Below are positions 4,435-29,876 of a stretch of 32,000 bases of DNA, piece after piece. Each line of letters opens with the position of its first letter. The first letter of the stretch is position 1. The DNA is from Candidatus Lokiarchaeum ossiferum (GTDB lineage Archaea; Asgardarchaeota; Lokiarchaeia; Sigyniarchaeales; Promethearchaeaceae), in NCBI GenBank assembly GCA_025839675.1, contig CP104013.1, forward strand, positions 2,040,001-2,072,000. The letters run 5' to 3'. The notes beneath the pieces were generated by a model that was given only the letters and a program-made list of their open reading frames with translations, made no database searches and had not been told where the DNA came from. A program made the position numbers and the translations under genes.

Positions 4435-7400
4435 TTATATGGGATTTTTCTTTTTGTAGACCACTACCCCACCAATGATTGCAATAATGGCAACCCCTCC
4501 TCCAATGGATACAGGAAGTACCCATGAAGGTACCTTTGTAACATCATCTTGAGTAGAGGAAAGTGTTAAATTTGGAGTTAGGAGCTGAACACCATAACTT
4601 GCTATATTTAACCGATATTGAACATATTCGGAGGTATTCACATCAGCGGCAACAAATATAAATTTGAAGCTAGATGGAGCAATCCCTAATTCTATAGAAT
4701 CATTCACATTTCCTGAAAATAGAGGATAAACATTTGACATAACGGGGCCAGTATTATCTAACCATATATTATCAAAAATTAATCCAGCAGAGATCGGGTT
4801 TTGAGTATTGGTACTTTGGAAAACAAATTGGTACCAATCATAGAGATTTCCTTCAACGGAAACAATTACCCCATCATGGTGAGATTCATTATAAGAACCG
4901 GAAAATCCATAGGTGTTATAATCTTCAAAATCCAATTCACTGAGATCAATTGGACTAGAACCAATGGAAGGATATGTTTCAGTTTCATAACGTGCTACAT
5001 CATCGAATGTAACTATTCTAAACTTAACCTCTTTGGTGATAGGTACATTTGTATAGGTGCTTGTACTTTCATCATAAGTTCGATCGTAGACTTGATAAGG
5101 CCAAATAGACCAGAGAGCATCACCAGATCCAAAAAGACCATTATCGGATAATTCAAGATAGATATAATCCTGAGAATCAAATTCATCAAATCCGTCGAGG
5201 TTGAGAGTATAATCTTTAGTTTCTTTTTGAAGCTTAGTCATATTATCAAATTTTGAAATTAAATTAATCTCAGAGTTAACTTTCACATATAAATTTGTAT
5301 AGGGATACATTTGCACTTTAGGGGAAGCAGAATTATGTGGAGCAAGAGCAGGAATTGAACTGGGAGAAGGAACCAAACACCTCAATCGATACCAATACAT
5401 AGATTTATTGACATCGGGCATAGCACCTCCCCAATCAGGATCACTCACTTTATTAAACTCAGTAAAAACTTGAGGATAATCAAAATTGATCTTTCCACTT
5501 TGTCCTAAAGTTCCCCCTGTAGTATTAGTCCCATCGGATAAAATATTCATATTCGTCCAATCGTTATCCGAATCGTTATCCAACCATTGCCAAGTATAAT
5601 TACCCGTAGAAGAACTGACATTCACTAAATTAAAAGCCATGCTATCAACTTGTTGATCACACCCGAAATAGACATAATGACTTGTTGCACTTCCATTAAC
5701 AAATAAGTCCAACGCAGATCCACTAGTTGTTTGATTTAAGTACTCAGTTCCATTCCAAATCCACACTTGAGTATCAGATACATCCATAACTCTATCGAAG
5801 ATGAGTGGATTATCAGCGGGATAGATGCTGACATTATAACCAAATCGAATGGAATCATCATACTCGAACGACCGAGTTGATGGATAATTAACAGTATAAG
5901 TTGAAGTATCATAAAAAGGAGCACTCGTTAATTGACTCATGTCTGATTTCAAAATGTAATCGTTAATTTTAGTATGATGTTTGCTAGTGATTTCATCTCG
6001 ATCTAAAATGTATGATTGGAATTCTACCACATCTGTCTGTAATTTCGAAGTACTATGAATAAATAATCGATAAATGCCTGGAACCAAATCATAATAATAA
6101 TCTGACACACTTCCACTTGCAATAGGGGCGTTTATTTTTAAATAGCCAGTTTCATCGCTTAAATAAAAGAAATCATTAGCTGGGTCATATACACCAGCTC
6201 CACCTTGATGAATAGTATAGTTCAAAAGAACTGAGGTTGGTTCAGTTCCAGTGACATTGAATTGGATGATTGCTCTCTGAAAAGTGGGATCTACACTATA
6301 AAGACTTGTATTGCCCAATTCATACTGGTATGTCGGAATTTCATCATTGTAAACAGCGAAATTATAATAAAGAGGGATGTTCCAAAGTGTATTGAAATAT
6401 TGATTGTGTAAAACTGCAAAATAGGCAGTACCGTCTTCACTTATAGGAATGAACGTATCTGTTCCATCAGTTGCAATAGTATCCATTTGATACCCAGAAA
6501 TACTTGGAAGGAGTAAGAAACTCATGGGGGATCCCCATATTTCAGCATAATTAAATCGAAGGTATTGTCCGGTGGAAACGGGGAATGAATATAATTGAAT
6601 TGGGAAATATGCACTCTCTGACATCAATGTGGATGGATCAATTTCCTCAGAATTACTATCTTGGTATATAACACGATCTCCAATATCTAAATCTGTGATA
6701 TCAGTGATTCCCACTAGTTCAAAAGTGACATAACGTGTAGTGGTTTTAAAGAAAAGAGTATAACTTCCAGCATAATCTGCCCAGAAATATGCAAATTTCC
6801 GAATGGTTGTCCCACCTCCCATTCCATCAGCGAGTAAAGGAAGTAAATTTTCCGCAGTAAACCCAATTTCTGTTCCATTTTTGTTTATTAAATGGGGACT
6901 ATTCAAAGTAGTATCAGCTTCATAGTAGAAAATATACAAACCTGGTGCTCCAACAATTAATTCCAATTCTCGATAATCAGACATAATAAATGTATCAAAT
7001 CCAGTTTTGGCACCAACATTTAAAGATCCCAATTGTACTGATGAAAGTGAGAGATTATATGATGCAGTTTCTCCACTCTCAATATCATTATTCGAAATAT
7101 CAAGCCATTCAACAGCCCAAGGATTTTCCAAAGGATCAACACCCCATGTTTCTTCTAATGTTCCAAGTGATGTAGGATATCCTTTTTCATTTGTTGTTGA
7201 AAATGTTTTTGTTCCTATTTGATTATCTTCAAAATCAACATAGGTGAACACACCCGGTTGATCCCCTGCTACATGAACATTGAAAGGATAATTTTTAGCA
7301 GGAAGCATAGCAATTTTTGTATTAGTTGGAAACTCACTGTCAATGGACACAGATTCAGTGCTATTTATAATACTAGACTGAGTTTCAGCAGGTAAAGCTG

Positions 7401-7470
7401 TACCAGGACCCATCAACATGGAAATGACACACAATACAAAAGCGTATGTTATTATTTTTTTTGTTTTCAT
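4435..7470 (-). CDS. large secreted, C-terminally membrane-anchored surface protein (probable glycoprotein), function unknown
   Basis: 1011 aa. It has an N-terminal signal peptide (MKTKKIITYAFVLCVISMLMGPGTALPA) and a C-terminal TM plus basic tail (VLPVSIGGGVAIIAIIGGVVVYKKKNPI). It is rich in Tyr, Thr, Ser and Asn, with about 20 N-x-S/T sequons counted by eye. Confidence 0.7.
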   Translation of the reverse strand: MKTKKIITYAFVLCVISMLMGPGTALPAETQSSIINSTESVSIDSEFPTNTKIAMLPAKNYPFNVHVAGDQPGVFTYVDFEDNQIGTKTFSTTNEKGYPTSLGTLEETWGVDPLENPWAVEWLDISNNDIESGETASYNLSLSSVQLGSLNVGAKTGFDTFIMSDYRELELIVGAPGLYIFYYEADTTLNSPHLINKNGTEIGFTAENLLPLLADGMGGGTTIRKFAYFWADYAGSYTLFFKTTTRYVTFELVGITDITDLDIGDRVIYQDSNSEEIDPSTLMSESAYFPIQLYSFPVSTGQYLRFNYAEIWGSPMSFLLLPSISGYQMDTIATDGTDTFIPISEDGTAYFAVLHNQYFNTLWNIPLYYNFAVYNDEIPTYQYELGNTSLYSVDPTFQRAIIQFNVTGTEPTSVLLNYTIHQGGAGVYDPANDFFYLSDETGYLKINAPIASGSVSDYYYDLVPGIYRLFIHSTSKLQTDVVEFQSYILDRDEITSKHHTKINDYILKSDMSQLTSAPFYDTSTYTVNYPSTRSFEYDDSIRFGYNVSIYPADNPLIFDRVMDVSDTQVWIWNGTEYLNQTTSGSALDLFVNGSATSHYVYFGCDQQVDSMAFNLVNVSSSTGNYTWQWLDNDSDNDWTNMNILSDGTNTTGGTLGQSGKINFDYPQVFTEFNKVSDPDWGGAMPDVNKSMYWYRLRCLVPSPSSIPALAPHNSASPKVQMYPYTNLYVKVNSEINLISKFDNMTKLQKETKDYTLNLDGFDEFDSQDYIYLELSDNGLFGSGDALWSIWPYQVYDRTYDESTSTYTNVPITKEVKFRIVTFDDVARYETETYPSIGSSPIDLSELDFEDYNTYGFSGSYNESHHDGVIVSVEGNLYDWYQFVFQSTNTQNPISAGLIFDNIWLDNTGPVMSNVYPLFSGNVNDSIELGIAPSSFKFIFVAADVNTSEYVQYRLNIASYGVQLLTPNLTLSSTQDDVTKVPSWVLPVSIGGGVAIIAIIGGVVVYKKKNPI

Positions 7471-7645: not shown

Positions 7646-8524
7646 TTAATAATTCTTATCATCCTTGGAACCAAAAATCTGCCTCTGAATTCGTTTTCCC
7701 GTCGGTGAAGCTGCAAGTCCACCATTCCCAGTCTCTCGTAAGTCTTCAGGTAATTTACGCCCAACTTTCATCATAGCTTCGATAACTTCATCAGCGGGAA
7801 TTATAGAAGTCACTCCGGAAAGCGCCATTTCGGCAGCGAGAAATGCATTCATGACACCAATTGCATTACGTTTGATACAAGGAGAAATTACTAAACCCGC
7901 TACGGGATCACAAACCAAACCCAAAAGATTTTTTAATGTCAAGGCAACGACTTGCCCAATTTGGTCGGGAGAACCACCTGCCATATATGCGATAGCAGAA
8001 CCCGCCATTGCTGATGCCACCCCCACTTCAGCTTGGCATCCCGCTTCACTTCCAGACAAAGACGCTAAATTTCCAATAATAGCTCCAACAGTTGCACCGA
8101 CTAAAAACGCATTTAAAACATCTTCATTGGATTTATCTAGCATCTGTTGAGCCTTAAAAATGACTGCAGGAAAAATACCCGAAGATCCAGCAGTTGGACA
8201 AGCGCAAATTACACCCATTCCATTACTATATTCCATAATTGACATCGCCCAATATATTGCTTCTTTTAAATCTTTCCCGATAAAGATTGGGGCACCCATC
8301 ATATGTTGCGATTGCTCAATAACTTCTTTGATTGGGAGATCGATGTCCAAAGTGTTTCCTTTTTCAAGAGATTGTAACATTATATCAAGTGAATGTTGCG
8401 CTCTATCAAGAATTTCCTTATGAGACCTTCCAGTAGTTAAAGATTCTTCATTTAAAATAATCTCATGCATTGGGAGATTTTCTTTTTTCACTATGGAAAT
8501 TAAATCAGCCATATCCTCAAACAT
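7646..8524 (-). CDS. sdaAA: L-serine dehydratase (iron-sulfur dependent), alpha subunit
   Basis: 292 aa. The motif GVICACPTAGSSGIFPAV and the Gly/Ala-rich core are typical of SdaAA. It overlaps the upstream beta-subunit gene by 8 nt. Confidence 0.9.
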   Translation of the reverse strand: MFEDMADLISIVKKENLPMHEIILNEESLTTGRSHKEILDRAQHSLDIMLQSLEKGNTLDIDLPIKEVIEQSQHMMGAPIFIGKDLKEAIYWAMSIMEYSNGMGVICACPTAGSSGIFPAVIFKAQQMLDKSNEDVLNAFLVGATVGAIIGNLASLSGSEAGCQAEVGVASAMAGSAIAYMAGGSPDQIGQVVALTLKNLLGLVCDPVAGLVISPCIKRNAIGVMNAFLAAEMALSGVTSIIPADEVIEAMMKVGRKLPEDLRETGNGGLAASPTGKRIQRQIFGSKDDKNY

Positions 8525-9191
8525 TTATAGCCCTCACCTCTTTCATTTCTGGAATCTTTCTTAAAGCAGATATTAGTTCATCTGGAATTTGTTTTGTTAA
8601 TTCAATCCAACTCATTGCAATTTTTTTCCGAATATTGCGGGAAAGGTGCATTTCGCTAATATTTATATCAAATATCGAAACAACACTAGCGATATTTGCC
8701 AATACTCCAGGAATATCATCGTGAACTTCAACAATAGTAGGAGAATCCGCATCAAAGCCCGCTTCTAATCCATCTATTTCTTTGATTCGTATATTGCCAC
8801 CTCCAATGGAAGAACCCACAATTGAAAGCTGTTTTTTATCCGTTTTCATAACAATTTTGATGGAATTTGGATGATAATCAGGACCCAAATCAGCCATTTC
8901 AAATTTAAATTTCATAGACTTTTCTTGAGCATGCTGAAAACTAAATGGAATTCGTTCATCGTCAGGTTTATAGCCAAGTAATCCCCCAACTATGGCTACA
9001 TCGGATCGATGGCCTCGATATGTTTCAGCAAACGACCCGTGCAAATATATCTTAGCCTCAAGAGGCATCCCCCCAAAGATAATATGGGACACATATCCAA
9101 TCCGACAGGCCCCAGCTGTGTGAGAAGAACTCGGCCCTACCATGATGCGACCAACCACATCAAAAATGGAATCATATTTCACAATGATCAA
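8517..9191 (-). CDS. sdaAB: L-serine dehydratase (iron-sulfur dependent), beta subunit with C-terminal ACT-like domain
   Basis: 224 aa. The N-terminus SIFDVVGRIMVGPSSSHTAGACRIG is the hallmark of the SdaAB family. The gene is coupled to sdaAA. Confidence 0.9.
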   Translation of the reverse strand: MIIVKYDSIFDVVGRIMVGPSSSHTAGACRIGYVSHIIFGGMPLEAKIYLHGSFAETYRGHRSDVAIVGGLLGYKPDDERIPFSFQHAQEKSMKFKFEMADLGPDYHPNSIKIVMKTDKKQLSIVGSSIGGGNIRIKEIDGLEAGFDADSPTIVEVHDDIPGVLANIASVVSIFDINISEMHLSRNIRKKIAMSWIELTKQIPDELISALRKIPEMKEVRAINV

Positions 9192-9248
9192 TTAATGCTA
9201 TTTTCCAATAAAACTTTAGGCGTGCTAGTTAAGATTATATTAAGAAAA

Positions 9249-9911
9249 ATGAATCGTTGTGAATTTATCTATAATGCCGCCATGACTATAGATGGAAAAA
9301 TTGCCACTCGGGAAGGAGACTCGCAACTTTCCGATGAGTTGGATTGGAAGGAAGTCCATGCCATCAGGAGGGATGTAGATGCAATTATGGTCGGAATCAC
9401 GACAGTCCAACAAGATGATCCCAAATTAACAGTCAAGTTTTACGGGCCTTTAAAAAAATATCCCACTCGTATTATTATTGATAGCCGAGGGAAAATACCT
9501 ATAAATGCGAGAGTGATTAACTTTGAAAAGGATAAATATCCCACATTAATTGCGACCACCACCCATATAGACCCAAAAAAGAAGGAACAGTTGATTCAGA
9601 AAGGAGTGACTGTCATCGAAGCGGGAATAAATCAACACGTTGATCTCTTGTTATTAGCCAAAAAGTTATGGGAATTAGGCATCAAGAAAGTACTCTTAGA
9701 AGGAGGGGGAACTTTGGCTTGGGGATTATTGGAACAAGATCTCATTGATGAAATTAGATTATTTGTAGCTCCATTTTTAACCGGTGGAAAAAAAGCCACG
9801 AGCTTGATTATGGGGGAAGGATTTCCAAAAATACTTTCCTCCCGAAAATTCAATTTGGTAGACCTCAAGAGCCGAAATTCGAATGTTATAGTAAAATATT
9901 CTCGTAAATAG
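9249..9911 (+). CDS. RibD C-terminal-domain reductase (archaeal-type 2,5-diamino-6-ribosylamino-4(3H)-pyrimidinone 5'-phosphate reductase-like)
   Basis: The track ORF starts at 9009 but overlaps sdaAB antisense. The internal ATG at 9249 gives MNRCEFIYNAAMTIDGKIATREGDSQLSD...IMVGITTVQQDDPKLTV...LLEGGGTLAWGLL...DEIRLFVAP, which is the RibD_C/DHFR-like pattern at the usual length of about 220 aa. Confidence 0.75.
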   Translation: MNRCEFIYNAAMTIDGKIATREGDSQLSDELDWKEVHAIRRDVDAIMVGITTVQQDDPKLTVKFYGPLKKYPTRIIIDSRGKIPINARVINFEKDKYPTLIATTTHIDPKKKEQLIQKGVTVIEAGINQHVDLLLLAKKLWELGIKKVLLEGGGTLAWGLLEQDLIDEIRLFVAPFLTGGKKATSLIMGEGFPKILSSRKFNLVDLKSRNSNVIVKYSRK

Positions 9912-22397: not shown

Positions 22398-22481
22398 CTA
22401 TTCTTGAACTTTTGCTAATTGCTTGCGTGCCCATTGAAGCATAGTGGCTTCTAATTGAGCGATATCGTCGTCAGTAATCAT
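22398..22481 (-). CDS. micro-ORF (27 aa) with a strong Shine-Dalgarno sequence, hypothetical
   Basis: Hand translation gives MITDDDIAQLEATMLQWARKQLAKVQE followed by TAG. AAGGAG (22491-22496, minus sense) lies 9 nt upstream of the ATG. The peptide looks like an amphipathic helix. No family recognised. Confidence 0.3.
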   Translation of the reverse strand: MITDDDIAQLEATMLQWARKQLAKVQE

Positions 22482-22665: not shown

Positions 22666-23946
22666 TCATGAAATTTGATGAGATTTCCACCGAAAATCAT
22701 GGCTAATTTTTGCATAATGGCGATTTAATTGATCCAATTCTTCAAAATTATAAACTTGAATCACAATATACGACAGATCAGGATGAAAAATGGATGCATC
22801 TAAAATAACAATGAATCTATGGCCATCGTCTAATGAAAAGGTGAAATAGTCGCCTTTTTCTCCAAAAATTCGTTTATGATCCATCAATAACTTGAGAATA
22901 TAGGATTTCAGTGAATTAATCTCATCTAAAACCTTGTTATCAGTGGTGAAGAGTGATGCGATATCAAAATCTTTATCTAATAAAAATAATGGTTGAATCA
23001 TGGAAGTATCGGCAAGCATTTGAAATAATTCTGAAAAGAAATTGAAAAACAGGGAGAATTTATCCAGAATCAACTGAGTCCCAATAATTAAATCTTGATT
23101 TCCTTGATATTGGAGACTGGTGAAGAAAATCGGAATATTATTTTTAAATGCGAATTCTTGAAGAGATATTTGATCAAAATCAGGAAAATCAGCAACTAAA
23201 TCAAATTTATGACAAAAAATGACAATCTGAGGGCATATTTTTTCTTCACTTTGATTAATACGGATTAAACGCGATAAAGTATCTAACAATTTCTCGGAAC
23301 TGAGGGTCCAGTCTTCGACAGAAATGAAAAAAATAATGAGATCCGAATATTGCAAAAGATTTTCATCTGGATCCAGCCATCGTTCAATTTCTTGGCCCGA
23401 AGTATCAAACACTGATAGTTGCAAATCAATGAGATCATAATGCGACGTTTCAAATGCTTCCGTGGGGGAAAGGGAAGTATTTAATAAATCTTCGCTGGTA
23501 ATTTTATCAAAAATGAACTGTTTCGTTGAAGTCTTTCCTGAATTCGGATACCCCATGAACACTATCTTTCTGATTTTAGGTTCTATAATATTTTTTGCAA
23601 ATTTGTAGAAACATTGATTTCTTTGATCTTTAGCCATTTGGAGTATAGAATCACCTTGAATTTTGAGTTCCATTTGAAGTTTATTTATCAAAACTGTATC
23701 GGTTTCATCTAATACTGCGACAATAAAATCGTAATTCATGATCCCATCTCTCACTGGAAATCCATAAATTAAAACAATTTGATTTTCATCCTTGATTTCT
23801 AACGTTGGAGATGTACCCAAAGCTTGCAATGTCGCCAAATATTGCGAAATTTTATTCTTATCGATTTGAGAATTGTCCGGATATTGAGCTTCGATTATTG
23901 AACCCAACATATTATCCCAACCAACTAAGAATATCCCTTTTAGCAT
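22666..23946 (-). CDS. multidomain small GTPase: N-terminal longin/roadblock-like domain, Rag/Gtr-like GTPase domain, C-terminal roadblock-like domain
   Basis: 426 aa. G1 is KIVFMGYPNSGKTS (23530-23553), G3 is DTSGQ (23392-23406) and G4 is CHKFD (23200-23211). By eye it matches human RagA segment by segment: KVLLMGKSGSGKTSM, WDCGGQD and FCLVHKMDLV. The flanking ~120-aa regions have alternating beta/alpha-like patterns. Confidence 0.8.
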   Translation of the reverse strand: MLKGIFLVGWDNMLGSIIEAQYPDNSQIDKNKISQYLATLQALGTSPTLEIKDENQIVLIYGFPVRDGIMNYDFIVAVLDETDTVLINKLQMELKIQGDSILQMAKDQRNQCFYKFAKNIIEPKIRKIVFMGYPNSGKTSTKQFIFDKITSEDLLNTSLSPTEAFETSHYDLIDLQLSVFDTSGQEIERWLDPDENLLQYSDLIIFFISVEDWTLSSEKLLDTLSRLIRINQSEEKICPQIVIFCHKFDLVADFPDFDQISLQEFAFKNNIPIFFTSLQYQGNQDLIIGTQLILDKFSLFFNFFSELFQMLADTSMIQPLFLLDKDFDIASLFTTDNKVLDEINSLKSYILKLLMDHKRIFGEKGDYFTFSLDDGHRFIVILDASIFHPDLSYIVIQVYNFEELDQLNRHYAKISHDFRWKSHQIS

Positions 23947-24031
23947 TTTTGATTACCCATTTCGAGATTAATTATATTGTTTATATGAGCCCAGATGTTT
24001 AATAGTTGTGAAAAAAGGAAAAAACTGGAAT

Positions 24032-24733
24032 TTATTCCCCAATTTCAGTAGAATTTTTAAAAAACTTTGAAGAATAATATCCTTGGATCCAAAATGTAAC
24101 AATTTCAGCATAAACTACAATCTTTTGGCCAACAACTTGAATAAACCGTCCCGTTTCAGTATTTGAATCAGGGCCAAAAAATAAAAGATAAAGATATACA
24201 ATCAAAATACACCCCATTGCAATATATACAACGGATAAAATTTTTGGAGTAGATTTGTTCCGTAAAAATGTTATAACATAACATAGAACAACAGGTAAGG
24301 TGGTTGGAAAGGCTAAATAAACAAAAAAGAGATGTAATTCTAAAGTTGTATCCCAAGGAGTAAAACCTATTCCAATGTAGCCAAAAGCGGCAACAAATCC
24401 GATTAAGCTTCCAATAACCATCAGAACGAAATCAAGTTTATTCGTTTTAAATAGAGAAGGAATAGTTGCAAAGTAAGGCAGCATGAATCCTCCACAAAAT
24501 ATGGTAGCGAGTAAAAAGAGCGTTGATGAGAGCATATTTGATTCTCCACTATAACTCGTTGTCATTCCCAAATCGCTAAAAAAATTGTTGAAGAAAGAAT
24601 ATCCCAAGTTTTCTTGATTAAAAGCAGTCCCACCAGTAAATGTAAACATTGCGATTATGGTTAAAATGAAGAAAAGAGAACTACCGATAACTGGTGCGAA
24701 AAGAGCCCATTGTTTCAGTTTATTTTTATCCAT
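24032..24733 (-). CDS. polytopic membrane protein (possibly DUF998-like)
   Basis: 233 aa with about 6 hydrophobic helices. The FFSDLGMT motif after TM1 is reminiscent of DUF998. The family call is weak. Confidence 0.55.
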   Translation of the reverse strand: MDKNKLKQWALFAPVIGSSLFFILTIIAMFTFTGGTAFNQENLGYSFFNNFFSDLGMTTSYSGESNMLSSTLFLLATIFCGGFMLPYFATIPSLFKTNKLDFVLMVIGSLIGFVAAFGYIGIGFTPWDTTLELHLFFVYLAFPTTLPVVLCYVITFLRNKSTPKILSVVYIAMGCILIVYLYLLFFGPDSNTETGRFIQVVGQKIVVYAEIVTFWIQGYYSSKFFKNSTEIGE

Positions 24734-24819: not shown

Positions 24820-25284
24820 TTAACTTGATAGTGCCAATAAATTATACTCTTCCCATTTTTTGTCAAACTGAATTATTTTGAAACCAAGACTAAAGAAAAA
24901 GTTTAGAGCTCTAAAATTTTCAATTTTTACTTCAGTATAAACCGGGAAATTTAATTTTTGCGCTTCTCTCTTAGCAAAACTAATTAATTTCTTTCCAAAG
25001 CCTTGGTTTTGAAAATTGCTTGCAAGTGCAGTCATTTTTATAATTAGTTTATCTAATTCATATTTTAAAATCATAAATCCACAAAGATAATTTTTTTTAA
25101 AAATTCCATAATATTTATGATTCCCGATAGATCTATTTTGAAACCATTCTAAAAGGGATTTTTTTGTATGTTTTCGATTGGTAGAAGATAATACATGAGC
25201 ATTTGGATTCCAAATCTCCACCATAGTAGGAATATTTTCTTCAGTAATGAGGGTAATATTTACATTAACAGAATTTTGACTCAT
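24820..25284 (-). CDS. GNAT family N-acetyltransferase
   Basis: 154 aa. The acetyl-CoA-binding motif Q/RxxGxG/A is present as FQNQGFGKKLISFAKREAQ, with GNAT-like surrounding beta strands. Confidence 0.8.
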   Translation of the reverse strand: MSQNSVNVNITLITEENIPTMVEIWNPNAHVLSSTNRKHTKKSLLEWFQNRSIGNHKYYGIFKKNYLCGFMILKYELDKLIIKMTALASNFQNQGFGKKLISFAKREAQKLNFPVYTEVKIENFRALNFFFSLGFKIIQFDKKWEEYNLLALSS

Positions 25285-26708: not shown

Positions 26709-29700
26709 ATGAAAAAACAAGAAATTGTAAAAAGGATGGAAGTTCCAGTTGCGAATATTTTTGATATGCAATATAAGTGGACAATTTTAGCTGGAGCAGG
26801 TATTTCTATGGATGCTCCATCAAATCTACCTTCTGCTCGTCAAATCACACGTTCTTTATTGGAATTTTGTGCTCCAGAGGAAGAAGTCGAAGAATTAGCA
26901 AATTTAGAGGCTCTTCGCTATGAACTTCTTGTGGAAATGATTCAACAGGTCAGAGATACCGAATTAGTGTTTATGGACTATTTTGATCTGGTCAAGGATC
27001 CAAACTTGGTTCACCTTTTCATTGCTCAAGCAATTCTAACGGGAAATCATGCAATAACTACAAATTTTGACTATCTTATTGAATTTGCCCTTCAATCACT
27101 CCTTTCTCAAGAAAAACACCACAATATTCATCCCATTATAACTAAAGCAGATTTTCTTCAATATAAAAATCCAGAGGAATTGATGGCACAAGGGAGATTT
27201 CCACTGTACAAAATTCATGGCGCAAAAAGTAATATAATAACTCAAGAATCTACCATCGATTCCTTGGTAACCACAATTAGCGATCTGGGAAAAGATCGCG
27301 AGGTAGGAGAAACTTTTGCGATTGAACCTTATAAAAAACCCGCGGTGAACAACATGATGCGAGATAGATCTCTGCTCATTATGGGTTACTCGGGAAGTGA
27401 TGATTTTGATATCGGACCAGTGTTAAAAGAATTGCCTCATTTAAAACAATTGGTTTGGATAGAACATGCACCAGTGGATCGTCCAGAAATCTACCAAATT
27501 CAAAAAATAACAGATCTTTCTACTATTTCTTCTCTTTCTAAACCGGATTCTCTTTTAGCAGAAATTCGATCCGATGTAGATTTTGAAGTCTTTCTAATAA
27601 AAACCAATACAAGAACACTTATACAAGACTCTTTGTGGTCACAATTCTTTCCTTCAATTACTTTACCGAAAATTGCATCCCAACCTACTCAAAGACCTGA
27701 TTTTAAATCATGGGCACAAAATATATATGCAAATACGGGAATCTTAGATAAATATATCTTAGCAAGTAAAATATACTTGGAAGTCAATCAAAATCAATCT
27801 ACTTTGCGAACAGCCCGAAAAGGATTAGATTTAGCATCCAAAATGGAAGATCAATATGAATTTATGAAACAAGGGAATTTTAACAATATTCTTGGTCATG
27901 TGTATAAAGACATTGGTGAACCTGAAAAAGCTTTGGAGGCCTATTCCGCAAATTTGGAGACAGATTTAAAATTAGGTGATGTTGATGGAATAACAGCAGC
28001 TTATAGCGGAATTGGTTACATTTATTATAGTCAAAGTAATTTTCAGACAGCTTTGGAATATTATAACAAAGCATTGGATCTAGCAATAGAGAATGATTTA
28101 CTTGAAAAACAAGGGCATTATCTCAATAGCCTCGGAATGATCTATAAAGATCAAGGAAAATTTGACCAAGCAATGAATTACTTGCAAAAAGCGCTAGCAA
28201 TAGCAGAAAATGTAGGCAATTTGACCAGTAAAGCACGTCTTTATAGCAATATAGGACAGATGCACAAATCCCGAATGGAATATGACAAGGCGATCCAATA
28301 CTATCAAGATGCTTATAAGATAAATTCTGAATTAGGACAAATTAGGAGCATGGCTGTCAGATTAGGCCATATTGGACAAGTATACTATATGCAAGAAAAA
28401 TTTGATCTCGCTAAACAACATTATGAGGATTCATTAAAGATTTATAAAGAACTAGGCGATATTTCGAGTCAAGCACGTACCATGGGAAATTTAGCGTTAA
28501 TTAACGTTCAAAATAAAGAATATGACATTGCCTTGAAAATTTTCAAGGAAACAGTGCAAATTGCAGATAAATTGGGAGAATTACGTGGAAAGGCAATCCG
28601 GTTGAATAATATTGGTACAATTTATCAAGCTCAAGATGAGGATGAACAAGCTTTGAAATATTTCTTTGAAGCCGTAGATATTGATCAATCCACGGGAAAT
28701 CAAGCGAACCTAATCACGGATTTCAATAACATTGGGCTGTCATATGGGAAGCTTAAGAATTATGATCAAGCATTTGATTATTACAATAAAACTATTAACA
28801 TTGCAAAAGAAATTCAACAAGAAGAAATTCGAATGATTGGGTTAAGAAATCTCCGAGATCTTTATGTGCAAAGAGGAGATGAACTCAAATCGGAGAGAAA
28901 TTATCTTCAAGCCATTGAGGATTATCAACAAGCTTTTGAATTACACAACACACTTAAAAATCCCGAAGAAAATGCATATTATTTGAATAAATTAGGTGTT
29001 GCAAATTACTATGCAGATCAAAATGAGACAGCTATGCAATATTTTGAAGAAGCATTTCTTCTCGATGAACAGTTTGATGATCGAAAGGGAAAATCGGATC
29101 GACTTTATTATATGGCCTTAATTTATCAGGAAGCACAAAATCTTGAGAAAGCAGTTGATTTATTCGCTCAATCATTGAAATATGCAGATGAATTAGCTTT
29201 AGTAGACGATCAACTATTATTATTAGAAAAAATTTATAAGATTCATCGGGAACTTGCTTTACCAGAAAAAACAGTTTCATTCTTTGACCGATATTTAACA
29301 CTCCATTCTCATATTTATGCTGAAAACGCGGAAGAACTTCAGGAAAGTGTGATTAAATATCTTGAACTAGCGAAATTAAGTAATTCTCTAAAAATGCATG
29401 AGGAAGCATATGAAATTTTGTTAAGAGGAGCAAAAATTGCCGAACAAACACAGATGTTTTATGAATTATGTGCAATATATTATACTGCAGGATATACACA
29501 ATCTCAAAATCTGAAGAATTATTCAAAGGCAAACAAACTATACAAGCAAGCAGATCAAATTGCAAGTTCACATCACTTTGAGGATCTTCAAAATCAGCTT
29601 TTAAATCAATGGGCCTTAAGTTTAAAGTATTTGGGGCAATTTGATGAAGCAATAAATAAATTATTAATGGCTATTCCTTTAGCGGAAAAAATAGCAGATC

Positions 29701-29876
29701 CAAATGCATTAGGCCATCGATACAATAATTTGGCTGGAATTTATTTTCGGAAGAAAGCTTATCAACAATCTCTCGAATATTATACATTAGCATTAGCACA
29801 ATTTTCTGCTTTAGGCAAAACGAAAAGTGTTGCGACCATTCAAAAAAATATTGAAAATGTCCAAAAACGGATTTAA
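26709..29876 (+). CDS. SIR2_2-type sirtuin-like (putative NAD+-consuming) domain fused to about 17 TPR repeats
   Basis: 1055 aa, with the ATG 4 nt after the transglutaminase gene stop. The N-terminal domain has LAGAGISMDAPSNLP (26793-26807), ITTNFDYLIE (27057-27071), LYKIHGA (His codon 27216-27218) and LLIMGYSGSDDFDIGPVL. These match the GAGxS, TTNYD, HG and GYSxxD blocks of the SIR2_2 family. From about residue 375 to the end there are ~40-aa TPR_12-like units (NxxGxxYxxxGxxxxAxxYYxxAL). Confidence 0.85.
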   Translation: MKKQEIVKRMEVPVANIFDMQYKWTILAGAGISMDAPSNLPSARQITRSLLEFCAPEEEVEELANLEALRYELLVEMIQQVRDTELVFMDYFDLVKDPNLVHLFIAQAILTGNHAITTNFDYLIEFALQSLLSQEKHHNIHPIITKADFLQYKNPEELMAQGRFPLYKIHGAKSNIITQESTIDSLVTTISDLGKDREVGETFAIEPYKKPAVNNMMRDRSLLIMGYSGSDDFDIGPVLKELPHLKQLVWIEHAPVDRPEIYQIQKITDLSTISSLSKPDSLLAEIRSDVDFEVFLIKTNTRTLIQDSLWSQFFPSITLPKIASQPTQRPDFKSWAQNIYANTGILDKYILASKIYLEVNQNQSTLRTARKGLDLASKMEDQYEFMKQGNFNNILGHVYKDIGEPEKALEAYSANLETDLKLGDVDGITAAYSGIGYIYYSQSNFQTALEYYNKALDLAIENDLLEKQGHYLNSLGMIYKDQGKFDQAMNYLQKALAIAENVGNLTSKARLYSNIGQMHKSRMEYDKAIQYYQDAYKINSELGQIRSMAVRLGHIGQVYYMQEKFDLAKQHYEDSLKIYKELGDISSQARTMGNLALINVQNKEYDIALKIFKETVQIADKLGELRGKAIRLNNIGTIYQAQDEDEQALKYFFEAVDIDQSTGNQANLITDFNNIGLSYGKLKNYDQAFDYYNKTINIAKEIQQEEIRMIGLRNLRDLYVQRGDELKSERNYLQAIEDYQQAFELHNTLKNPEENAYYLNKLGVANYYADQNETAMQYFEEAFLLDEQFDDRKGKSDRLYYMALIYQEAQNLEKAVDLFAQSLKYADELALVDDQLLLLEKIYKIHRELALPEKTVSFFDRYLTLHSHIYAENAEELQESVIKYLELAKLSNSLKMHEEAYEILLRGAKIAEQTQMFYELCAIYYTAGYTQSQNLKNYSKANKLYKQADQIASSHHFEDLQNQLLNQWALSLKYLGQFDEAINKLLMAIPLAEKIADPNALGHRYNNLAGIYFRKKAYQQSLEYYTLALAQFSALGKTKSVATIQKNIENVQKRI

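Follow-up and report, generated by a model that had tools for sequence, protein, structure and literature searches.

The gene described here lies in a 32,000-nucleotide stretch of the Candidatus Lokiarchaeum ossiferum genome (contig CP104013.1, positions 2,040,001–2,072,000 of the forward strand; G+C ~33%), hereafter the window. On its minus strand, an open reading frame (ORF) with an ATG start, 426 codons and a stop encodes a 426-aa product that is 100% identical to NEF87_001696 (UYP45411.1; P0001) of Candidatus L. ossiferum, which is annotated in the database as a hypothetical or GTP-binding protein. The organism is placed in the Promethearchaeota, the NCBI name of the former Lokiarchaeota. 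Twenty-seven further homologues of ~421–451 aa, including a protein of the cultured Promethearchaeum syntrophicum MK-D1, aligned end to end with NEF87_001696 at 31–93% identity, and 23 homologues, referred to as the close family, were used for the alignment, the profile and the AlphaFold2 input. The architecture of three domains, a longin domain followed by a Rag-like G domain and a roadblock domain, is conserved across the Lokiarchaeota. An earlier description of this DNA made from its letters alone (the sequence-only reading) had proposed a single-chain longin-like, Rag-like and roadblock-like protein at 22666–23946; its ORF and quoted peptide matched the translated minus-strand ORF exactly, and its three domain assignments survived testing. 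The features of the locus are collected in Table 1.

Table 1. Features of the NEF87_001696 locus and of related loci. Coordinates are positions in the window, except where a locus handle precedes them.
Feature	Coordinates	Strand	Basis or remarks
Complete ORF, longin–Rag-like GTPase–roadblock (LGR) protein NEF87_001696	22666..23946	-	ORF listing; 100% identity; full-length orthologues of 421–451 aa
Predicted N-terminal longin domain, residues 1–122 (β1 β2 α1 β3 β4 β5 α2 α3)	23581..23946	-	AlphaFold2 domain model and Foldseek
β1–β2 hairpin motif W10-D11-x3-G15-S16-x6-P23 (WDNMLGSIIEAQYP)	23878..23919	-	"WD" as in GAP-type longins, with Ser at the Pro of their "GP" motif
R109, start of helix α3	23620..23622	-	Only conserved basic position of the longin: R in 46/59, K in 10/59
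Rag/Gtr-like G domain, residues 123–298	23053..23580	-	Pfam PF04670, PDB profile search, Foldseek
G1 P-loop GYPNSGKT, residues 132–139	23530..23553	-	G132, P134, N135, G137 and K138 invariant in the close family
Switch I P161-T162	23461..23466	-	Invariant in the close family
G3/switch II DTSGQ, residues 181–185	23392..23406	-	D181, S183, G184, Q185 and E186 invariant; aligns with RagA DcgGQd
G4 HKFD, residues 246–249	23200..23211	-	C245, H246, K247 and D249 invariant in the close family
G5 FFTSL, residues 274–278	23113..23127	-	F274, F275 and T276 invariant; aligns with RagA FRTSI (cFrTSi)
Predicted C-terminal roadblock domain, residues 299–426 (α1 β1 β2 α2 β3 β4 β5 α3)	22669..23052	-	DSSP on the AlphaFold2 model, Foldseek, profile alignment
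Upstream spacer of 85 bp with AT-rich TATA-like stretch (catataaacaatataatt)	23947..24031	-	Stretch ~20–35 bp before the ATG; read from the sequence
233-aa protein, ~5–6 hydrophobic segments	24032-24733	-	No Pfam/NCBIfam family; directly upstream of the GTPase gene
GNAT acetyltransferase	24820-25284	-	86-bp spacer to the membrane-protein gene
27-codon ORF (MITDDDIAQLEATMLQWARKQLAKVQE)	22398-22481	-	In the 448-bp gap; AAGGAG 8–9 nt before the ATG
Response regulator, orthologue loci	L001 5354-5749, L003 3922-4221, L004 4485-4874, L008 3398-3718, L011 3408-3719	-	
Response regulator, paralogous-subfamily loci	L012 823-1191, L013 3488-3853, L014 3459-3827, L015 3446-3814, L021 3476-3847	-	

In Pfam, Gtr1_RagA (PF04670) was the top family for NEF87_001696 (E 7.9e-11, 42.3 bits, cutoff 22), with Arf (PF00025, 31.4 bits) passing its cutoff but ranking under it and SRPRB remaining below threshold (18.4 bits, cutoff 25). 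Gtr1_RagA was likewise the top family in 10/10 diverse family members, at 30–87 bits; the divergent subfamilies reached 72–87 bits over ~210–220 of the 232 model positions, and the margin was thin in the MK-D1 orthologue (32.3 bits vs 31.1 for Arf). When the 23-homologue profile was compared with the sequences of the PDB, human RagA was found best (E 4e-12), Gtr1 and Gtr2 were matched at 9e-10 and 1.5e-6, and the best Arf-like protein was Arl6 (7e-6). Alignment with RagA begins at the P-loop and extends as far as RagA residue 293, well inside the roadblock domain. The match to Gtr1_RagA and to RagA is far beyond chance by both of these measures (Pfam E 7.9e-11; profile E 4e-12).

The individual motifs are in agreement with these rankings. 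Q185 occupies the position of RagA Q66 in the profile alignment, and HKFD in G4 aligns with HKMD of RagA and HKVD of Gtr2, with His replacing the usual Asn as it does in RagA, RagC, Gtr1 and Gtr2. The motif set for nucleotide binding and hydrolysis is intact, comprising the P-loop, Thr162, Gln185, HKxD and FFTS. The alignment with RagA that had earlier been made by eye was reproduced by HMMER (KKvllmGksgsGKTs, lwDcgGQd, FClvHKmDlv). HKxD, which the sequence-only reading had presented as a Rag hallmark, is indeed invariant in the close family (23/23), but in the wider family NKxD takes its place in four members, so that His at this position is typical and not absolute. PF04670, named by the same reading for a profile search, scored above its cutoff, but the flanking domains had no significant Pfam match. 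A Rag/Gtr-like nature of the G domain is supported by similarity rankings, motifs and architecture.

The full AlphaFold2 model, built from the 23-sequence alignment, had a mean predicted local distance difference test score (pLDDT) of 79.8 and a predicted template modelling score (pTM) of 0.74, and residues 151–164, in switch I, were the sole segment with pLDDT <50. In a Foldseek comparison of the whole model with the PDB, the ten best matches were all Rag/Gtr chains, led by Gtr1 (8fw5_D, 5e-12) and followed by the Lokiarchaeota LokiRagO (8yl2), 4arz, 6s6a and 3r7w. The Rag/Gtr alignments covered 306–329 columns on chains with 284–301 modelled residues, which corresponds to the G domain plus the C-terminal domain. 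In the latter, DSSP assigned residues 299–424 to the order α-ββ-α-βββ-α of roadblock domains, with FIVILDA and YIVIQVYN as strands. The C-terminal domain alone had no significant match in a profile search of the PDB sequences; its predicted roadblock fold is supported by the topology together with the collinear alignment through the Rag C-terminal domain, in line with the roadblock-like region of ~125 aa that had been suggested to follow the G domain. The fold assignments of both flanking domains are structural ones, because neither has a significant sequence-only match in the PDB or Pfam. Disorder of these flanks, which had been considered earlier as the outcome that would count against the proposal, was not seen, as both regions are folded in the model.

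Modelled alone, residues 1–122 gave a pLDDT of 89.1 and a pTM of 0.86, with strands at residues 2–11, 15–22, 48–53, 56–62 and 74–80 and helices at 30–43, 84–103 and 106–121 (DSSP), which is the longin order. The best Foldseek match of this domain was 8yqg, the longin of a Lokiarchaeota Roadblock-Longin protein (8.8e-4), and it was followed by a run of GATOR1/SEACIT chains. One of the matches, 8adl_S, is yeast Npr2 by its entry name; judging from chain length and order, the GATOR1 chains with 362–370 modelled residues would fit NPRL2, and those with 400–461 are probably NPRL3. The Lst4 longin, DENND1A, DENND10, VAMP7, AP sigma subunits and C9orf72–SMCR8 ranked lower, and the query-normalised TM score against solved longins was 0.4–0.63. 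The longin-like character proposed earlier for this region of ~120 aa was recovered with a confident model. In Pfam, no longin, NPR2, folliculin, C9orf72 or uDENN family was found at E <= 1 in the 23 close members.

The longin domain is marked by a hairpin of the form W-D-x3-G-x7-P between its first two strands. Across 76 sequences with an N-terminus, the W was present in 76/76, the D in 71/76 and the G in 76/76, and the residue after the G was S in 43, P in 17, T in 6, G in 4, A in 3, C in 2 and F in one. According to the Traffic 2025 paper (PMC12290439), a GP motif at the end of the β1–β2 loop is specific to the longins of the GTPase-activating protein (GAP) type, namely FLCN, NPRL2, SMCR8 and C9orf72; the essential W33-D34 of C9orf72 lie five residues before G38-P39; and, among eukaryotic longins, the GP/WD hairpin is absent from adaptins, TRAPP and DENND proteins. 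In the same paper, some Asgard longins are found to have the GP motif, and Arf-related or Rag/Gtr GTPases are raised as their partners in the form of a question.

A profile of 59 non-redundant N-domains was then compared by hhalign with human C9orf72, NPRL2, AP2S1 and SEC22B, whose sequences had been checked against PDB chains. The vertebrate C9orf72 family profile, which is shallow because its homologue search gave only vertebrate-level sequences, was matched with P 6e-5 and a probability of 65% over 41 columns, with the motif in register with W33-D34...G38-P39. The single C9orf72 sequence gave P 1e-3 and a score of 25.6, a value reached by 0/200 shuffled templates (11.5 +/- 2.2, maximum 19.4), and the single NPRL2 sequence aligned in register with P 5e-3. 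The non-GAP controls SEC22B and AP2S1, also as single sequences, gave P 0.25 and P 0.5, respectively. We regard the sequence likeness between the N-domain and C9orf72 as probably real but short.

The distribution of this longin head was evaluated with an N-domain profile against 1.84 billion representative proteins, which returned 44 matches. Nearly all of these were either proteins of ~420–447 aa with the domain at residues 1 to ~123, or short sequences of 60–166 aa that may be fragments. All the named matches belong to the Promethearchaeota, as do the 16 loci that were located in genomes of GTDB species. Three proteins, P0060 (312 aa), P0066 (333 aa) and P0069 (359 aa), carry the WD...G longin head in front of C-terminal parts of unrelated kinds, one of them Cys-rich with zinc-ribbon-like repeats and another possibly winged-helix-like; because of these proteins, the WD...G longin subtype is not strictly confined to the GTPase fusion. 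NEF87_001696 itself has no lipid-anchor motif, transmembrane segment, N-terminal amphipathic helix or myristoylation site, as judged by hydropathy and termini (maximum 19-residue hydropathy 1.64, position 2 not Gly, C-terminus HQIS). PADLOC found no defence-system match for the GTPase gene.

The three-domain architecture was already known, since Tran et al. (2024; Commun Biol, PMC10933270), who surveyed the MK-D1 GTPases with AlphaFold2, label the MK-D1 orthologue LGR, and Liu et al. report longin–Rag fusions. The novelty implied by the sequence-only reading was therefore overestimated, and NEF87_001696 is the L. ossiferum member of the published LGR architecture. In Supplementary Fig. 6 of PMC10933270, the MK-D1 protein WP_147663503.1 is aligned beside human RagA and RagC; it is our homologue P0020, 42% identical over the full length (429 vs 426 aa), with the three domains in identical order and identical G motifs. 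It comes from another genus, and the L. ossiferum locus lacks the response regulator, sensor kinases and extra Rag-like GTPases that accompany it. In the published work the longin of the MK-D1 protein was not placed in the GAP-longin (WD/GP) class, and the AlphaFold2 dimers published for MK-D1 longin-containing GTPases are roadblock- or longin-mediated (PMC10933270). Liu et al. also describe NPRL2-like longins and their links to two-component signalling in Asgard archaea, and report that Asgard genomes have no homologue of the mTOR catalytic domain.

The eukaryotic RagA/B and RagC/D and the yeast Gtr1/Gtr2 resemble the LGR protein in having a G domain with HKxD and FxTSI followed by a roadblock domain, and in lacking a lipid anchor. 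They differ in that they have no N-terminal longin, and identity in the structural alignments is ~15–17%. Rag heterodimers, Ragulator binding and TORC1 signalling are features of the eukaryotic proteins, whereas the LGR protein is known here from its sequence and model. Among Lokiarchaeota structures, LokiRagO (8yl2, E 2e-11) is one of the best fold matches for the G and roadblock domains, and 8yqg is the best for the N-domain; however, these two and LokiRagM (8zla) are G–roadblock or roadblock–longin proteins, not three-domain ones, with identities of ~12–17%. None of the three entries was among the PDB profile matches at E <= 0.01, and a literature search found no paper for them.

GATOR1 and FLCN have Rag GTPases as their substrates. 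With the longin complexes GATOR1 (NPRL2–NPRL3), FLCN–FNIP and C9orf72–SMCR8, the LGR protein shares an N-domain whose fold is nearest to the longins of NPRL2/Npr2 and, probably, NPRL3, as well as a W-D-x3-G-(S/P) hairpin with the same spacing as W33-D34...G38-P39 of C9orf72. Unlike in these complexes, the LGR longin is fused to the GTPase instead of being a separate subunit, it is not accompanied by a DENN or an NPRL2-specific C-terminal domain, it has no conserved arginine finger and has Ser at the GP Pro, and its hhalign probability is 65% at best. It also resembles the NPRL2-like longins of Liu et al. and the Asgard "Folliculin/SMCR8-type" GP longins of PMC12290439, in a GP-like hairpin and in an NPRL2-like structure; by the description in the available portion of the latter paper, the GP longins were put forward on the basis of likeness in structure and motif and have a conserved arginine finger, in contrast to the finger-less LGR domain joined covalently to a Rag-like G domain.

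On the same strand, 5' of the GTPase gene, are a GNAT acetyltransferase gene and then the gene of a multi-pass membrane protein of 233 aa; the spacers are 86 bp between these two genes and 85 bp before the GTPase gene. The TATA-like stretch in the latter spacer is possibly the GTPase gene's own promoter. On the other side, the GTPase gene is convergent with a beta-lactamase-fold gene across a gap of 448 bp. This arrangement is syntenic in a 93%-identical Lokiarchaeum relative (locus L022) and in none of the other loci, and the acetyltransferase and membrane-protein genes, kept together in L022 only, are a possible genus-specific operon. The 27-codon ORF in the gap and ~110 bp upstream of it (to ~22590) are far better conserved in L022 (7475-7561) than the rest of the gap, and the conservation collapses past the stop codon; of the eight codon differences, five are synonymous and three conservative. 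By this pattern, the ORF is probably a genuine small gene whose leader or promoter is conserved. It was absent from the loci other than L022, and Rfam found nothing in the window. Both the 233-aa protein and the 27-aa product were considered as partners of the GTPase and rejected as family-wide components, because they were found only in the two Lokiarchaeum loci.

A different neighbour is found in the relatives. In 11 distinct related loci, a single-domain response-regulator gene lies 150–300 bp upstream on the opposite strand, that is, divergent from the GTPase gene, and these response regulators are closely related to each other (166–253 bits against a hidden Markov model of three sequences). 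Five of the loci contain orthologues of NEF87_001696 (MK-D1, L003, L004, L008 and L011), and five (L012–L015 and L021) contain members of a paralogous subfamily that is 26–31% identical to NEF87_001696 and has the same layout. PAS/GAF sensor proteins and further Rag-like GTPases cluster near the relatives' genes. The pairing fits the proposal of Liu et al. that longin modules are coupled to two-component systems in Asgard growth regulation, and our literature search found no paper on a gene pair of an LGR GTPase and a response regulator.

The MK-D1 locus (L001, chromosome positions 2077182-2090471) has the orthologue in a cluster with four receiver-domain genes and two large sensor genes, one for a PAS/HisKA/HATPase histidine kinase and the other for a 1061-aa PAS/GAF protein, in addition to Gtr1_RagA-matching proteins of 500 and 383 aa and one OBG/TGS-type GTPase. 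L004 has two tandem Gtr1_RagA-matching proteins of ~500 aa and a 215-aa Arf/Ras-like GTPase.

Elsewhere in the window, a gene (26709-29876, +) between a transglutaminase-like gene and a permease gene encodes 1055 aa, with a SIR2_2 domain at the N-terminus and a long TPR array. It looks like a strain-specific insertion, because L022, although syntenic otherwise, has a 74-aa ORF instead of it; PADLOC matched only generic TPR models on its product. A 1011-aa ORF (4435-7470, -) had no Pfam/NCBIfam match at E <= 0.001–0.01. The ORF of a serine dehydratase beta/ACT protein (8517-9191, -, TTG start) overlaps a RibD_C ORF (9009-9911, +) by 183 bp, and one of the two start calls is probably too long.

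Taking the domains together, we lean towards an explanation in which the LGR protein is a Rag/Gtr switch that has the family's own roadblock domain and, in addition, a longin of the NPRL2/C9orf72 ("GAP-longin") class that tunes hydrolysis or the nucleotide state. A natural fusion of this class to a Rag-like GTPase is suggested because the hairpin, W-D-x3-G-(S/P), has the WD of the eukaryotic GAP longins and resembles their GP motif. By analogy with RagA–RagC and Gtr1–Gtr2, the roadblock domain would mediate dimerisation and two G domains would sit on the resulting roadblock platform, with each longin packing through its invariant W-D...G-(S/P) hairpin on the G domain of its own chain or of the dimer partner, and in this position tuning GTP hydrolysis or the nucleotide state. 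The longin would then play in cis the role that GATOR1, FLCN–FNIP and C9orf72–SMCR8 have in trans in eukaryotes. Lacking a conserved arginine finger, the longin would behave like a finger-less partner subunit (C9orf72-type) or work allosterically. In many relatives, the adjacent single-domain response regulator probably links the switch, as input or output, to a two-component phosphorelay.

Several observations weigh against this explanation. The Foldseek E-values of the N-domain are modest (~1e-3), and an unbiased profile search of the PDB sequences with this domain returned no longin at E <= 10. NEF87_001696 and its close relatives have GS and not GP in the hairpin. In hhalign, the stretch aligned with C9orf72 is just 41 columns, the C9orf72 P-value is optimistic because the template was picked after the motif had been seen by eye, and the NPRL2 family profile, in spite of aligning in register, gave P 0.017, which is not significant. 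No Arg is conserved in the β4–β5 loop, the site of NPRL2 Arg78, any Arg at all being found there in 29/59 N-domains. Finally, the response regulator was found neither in the 32-kb window nor in L005, L006 and L007. As to individual arginines, an in-cis finger at R66 (PVRxG loop) was rejected since R66 is missing from many family members, and the conserved R109 is at a position not equivalent to NPRL2 Arg78.

The main rival explanation is a longin that is not a regulator of hydrolysis but a dimerisation platform, a module resembling guanine nucleotide exchange factors, or one binding effectors or partners, within the same architecture; we consider this possible but the less probable account. 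Most longin and roadblock domains are of this kind (TRAPP, Mon1–Ccz1, Ragulator, SNARE longins), longin domains commonly build dimeric platforms (PMC13408092), and the top structural match, 8yqg, is itself a dimeric Lokiarchaeota longin. Longin-mediated dimers are also seen in AlphaFold2 models of some MK-D1 longin-GTPases (PMC10933270), and the non-catalytic partners, the probable NPRL3 chains and the FNIP-type Lst4, score level with NPRL2; the missing arginine finger points the same way. What speaks for the GAP class instead is that the sole invariant surface feature of the domain is the WD...G hairpin, reported in PMC12290439 as specific to that class among eukaryotic longins, and that the non-GAP longins AP2S1 and SEC22B give no profile signal.

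The identity of the G domain leaves room for two further accounts. It is unlikely, in our judgement, that the domain is an Arf-related or SR-beta-like branch with a convergent or independently acquired HKxD motif and roadblock tail, in which case a longin and an Arf-like GTPase in one chain would resemble the pair of SR-alpha (SRX longin) and SR-beta. Pfam Arf does pass its cutoff (31.4 bits) and matches 23/23 close members against 21/23 for Gtr1_RagA, the two families are separated by just 32.3 vs 31.1 bits in the MK-D1 orthologue, and relatives are named "ADP-ribosylation factor-like", "SAR1 family" or "SRP receptor beta" in their sources. However, Gtr1_RagA ranks first in each of the 10 diverse members, with a lead of at least 40 bits in the divergent subfamilies; RagA, Gtr1 and Gtr2 outrank every Arf-like protein of the PDB in an alignment that continues into the roadblock domain; and the ten best Foldseek matches are all Rag/Gtr. 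HKxD and FxTSI match Rag and not the NKQD of Arf, SRPRB is below cutoff (18.4 vs 25 bits), and, in place of an amphipathic helix, myristoylation site or membrane anchor, the N-terminus is a longin starting with MLKG. Less credible still is a fused polarity module of the MglA–MglB type. In the bacterial MglA–MglB–RomR system, a small GTPase regulated by a roadblock dimer works with a receiver-domain protein, as in Myxococcus, and the roadblock domain fused to a small GTPase and the conserved response-regulator neighbour of the LGR relatives are analogous to it; MglA/MglB homologues also exist in Asgard archaea. Tran et al. class the MglA-like proteins separately and state that the MK-D1 longin-GTPase paralogues lack the switch I arginine which they mark as catalytic in MglA (PMC10933270). 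The LGR G domain is not of the MglA type, its G3 being DTSGQ, and no MglA chain was among the 50 Foldseek matches listed or the 55 profile matches at E <= 0.01. The roadblock domain is fused and collinear as in the Rag C-terminal domain, and the regulator is a single receiver domain that is absent from the window.

At the lysosome, eukaryotic nutrient sensing centres on Rag GTPases and their longin and roadblock regulators, and the origin of this machinery belongs to the problem of eukaryogenesis. In the LGR protein all three types of module are found on one chain in a cultured Asgard archaeon, a general point that has already been published; because it comes from a cultured archaeon, the protein can be purified and studied. 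Our additions to the published work are modest and consist of the GAP-longin signature fused to a Rag-like GTPase, the lack of a conserved arginine finger and the response-regulator pairing in the relatives. The physical tie of such a longin to a Rag-like G domain and the consistent pairing of relatives with a response regulator lead to a concrete hypothesis, open to testing, on which GTPase the Asgard GP-motif longins work with and where their input comes from. Tentatively, and as a reading that we hold to be possible and not probable, the N-domain may be truly homologous to the GAP longins of eukaryotes, the Rag-like GTPases may be the cognate partners of the Asgard GP-motif longins, and the eukaryotic Rag–GATOR1/FLCN system may descend from an in-cis arrangement in the Lokiarchaeota, controlled not by TOR but by a phosphorelay through the divergent response regulator. 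If true, the cognate-partner reading would answer the question of partners that the Traffic 2025 paper (PMC12290439) leaves open.

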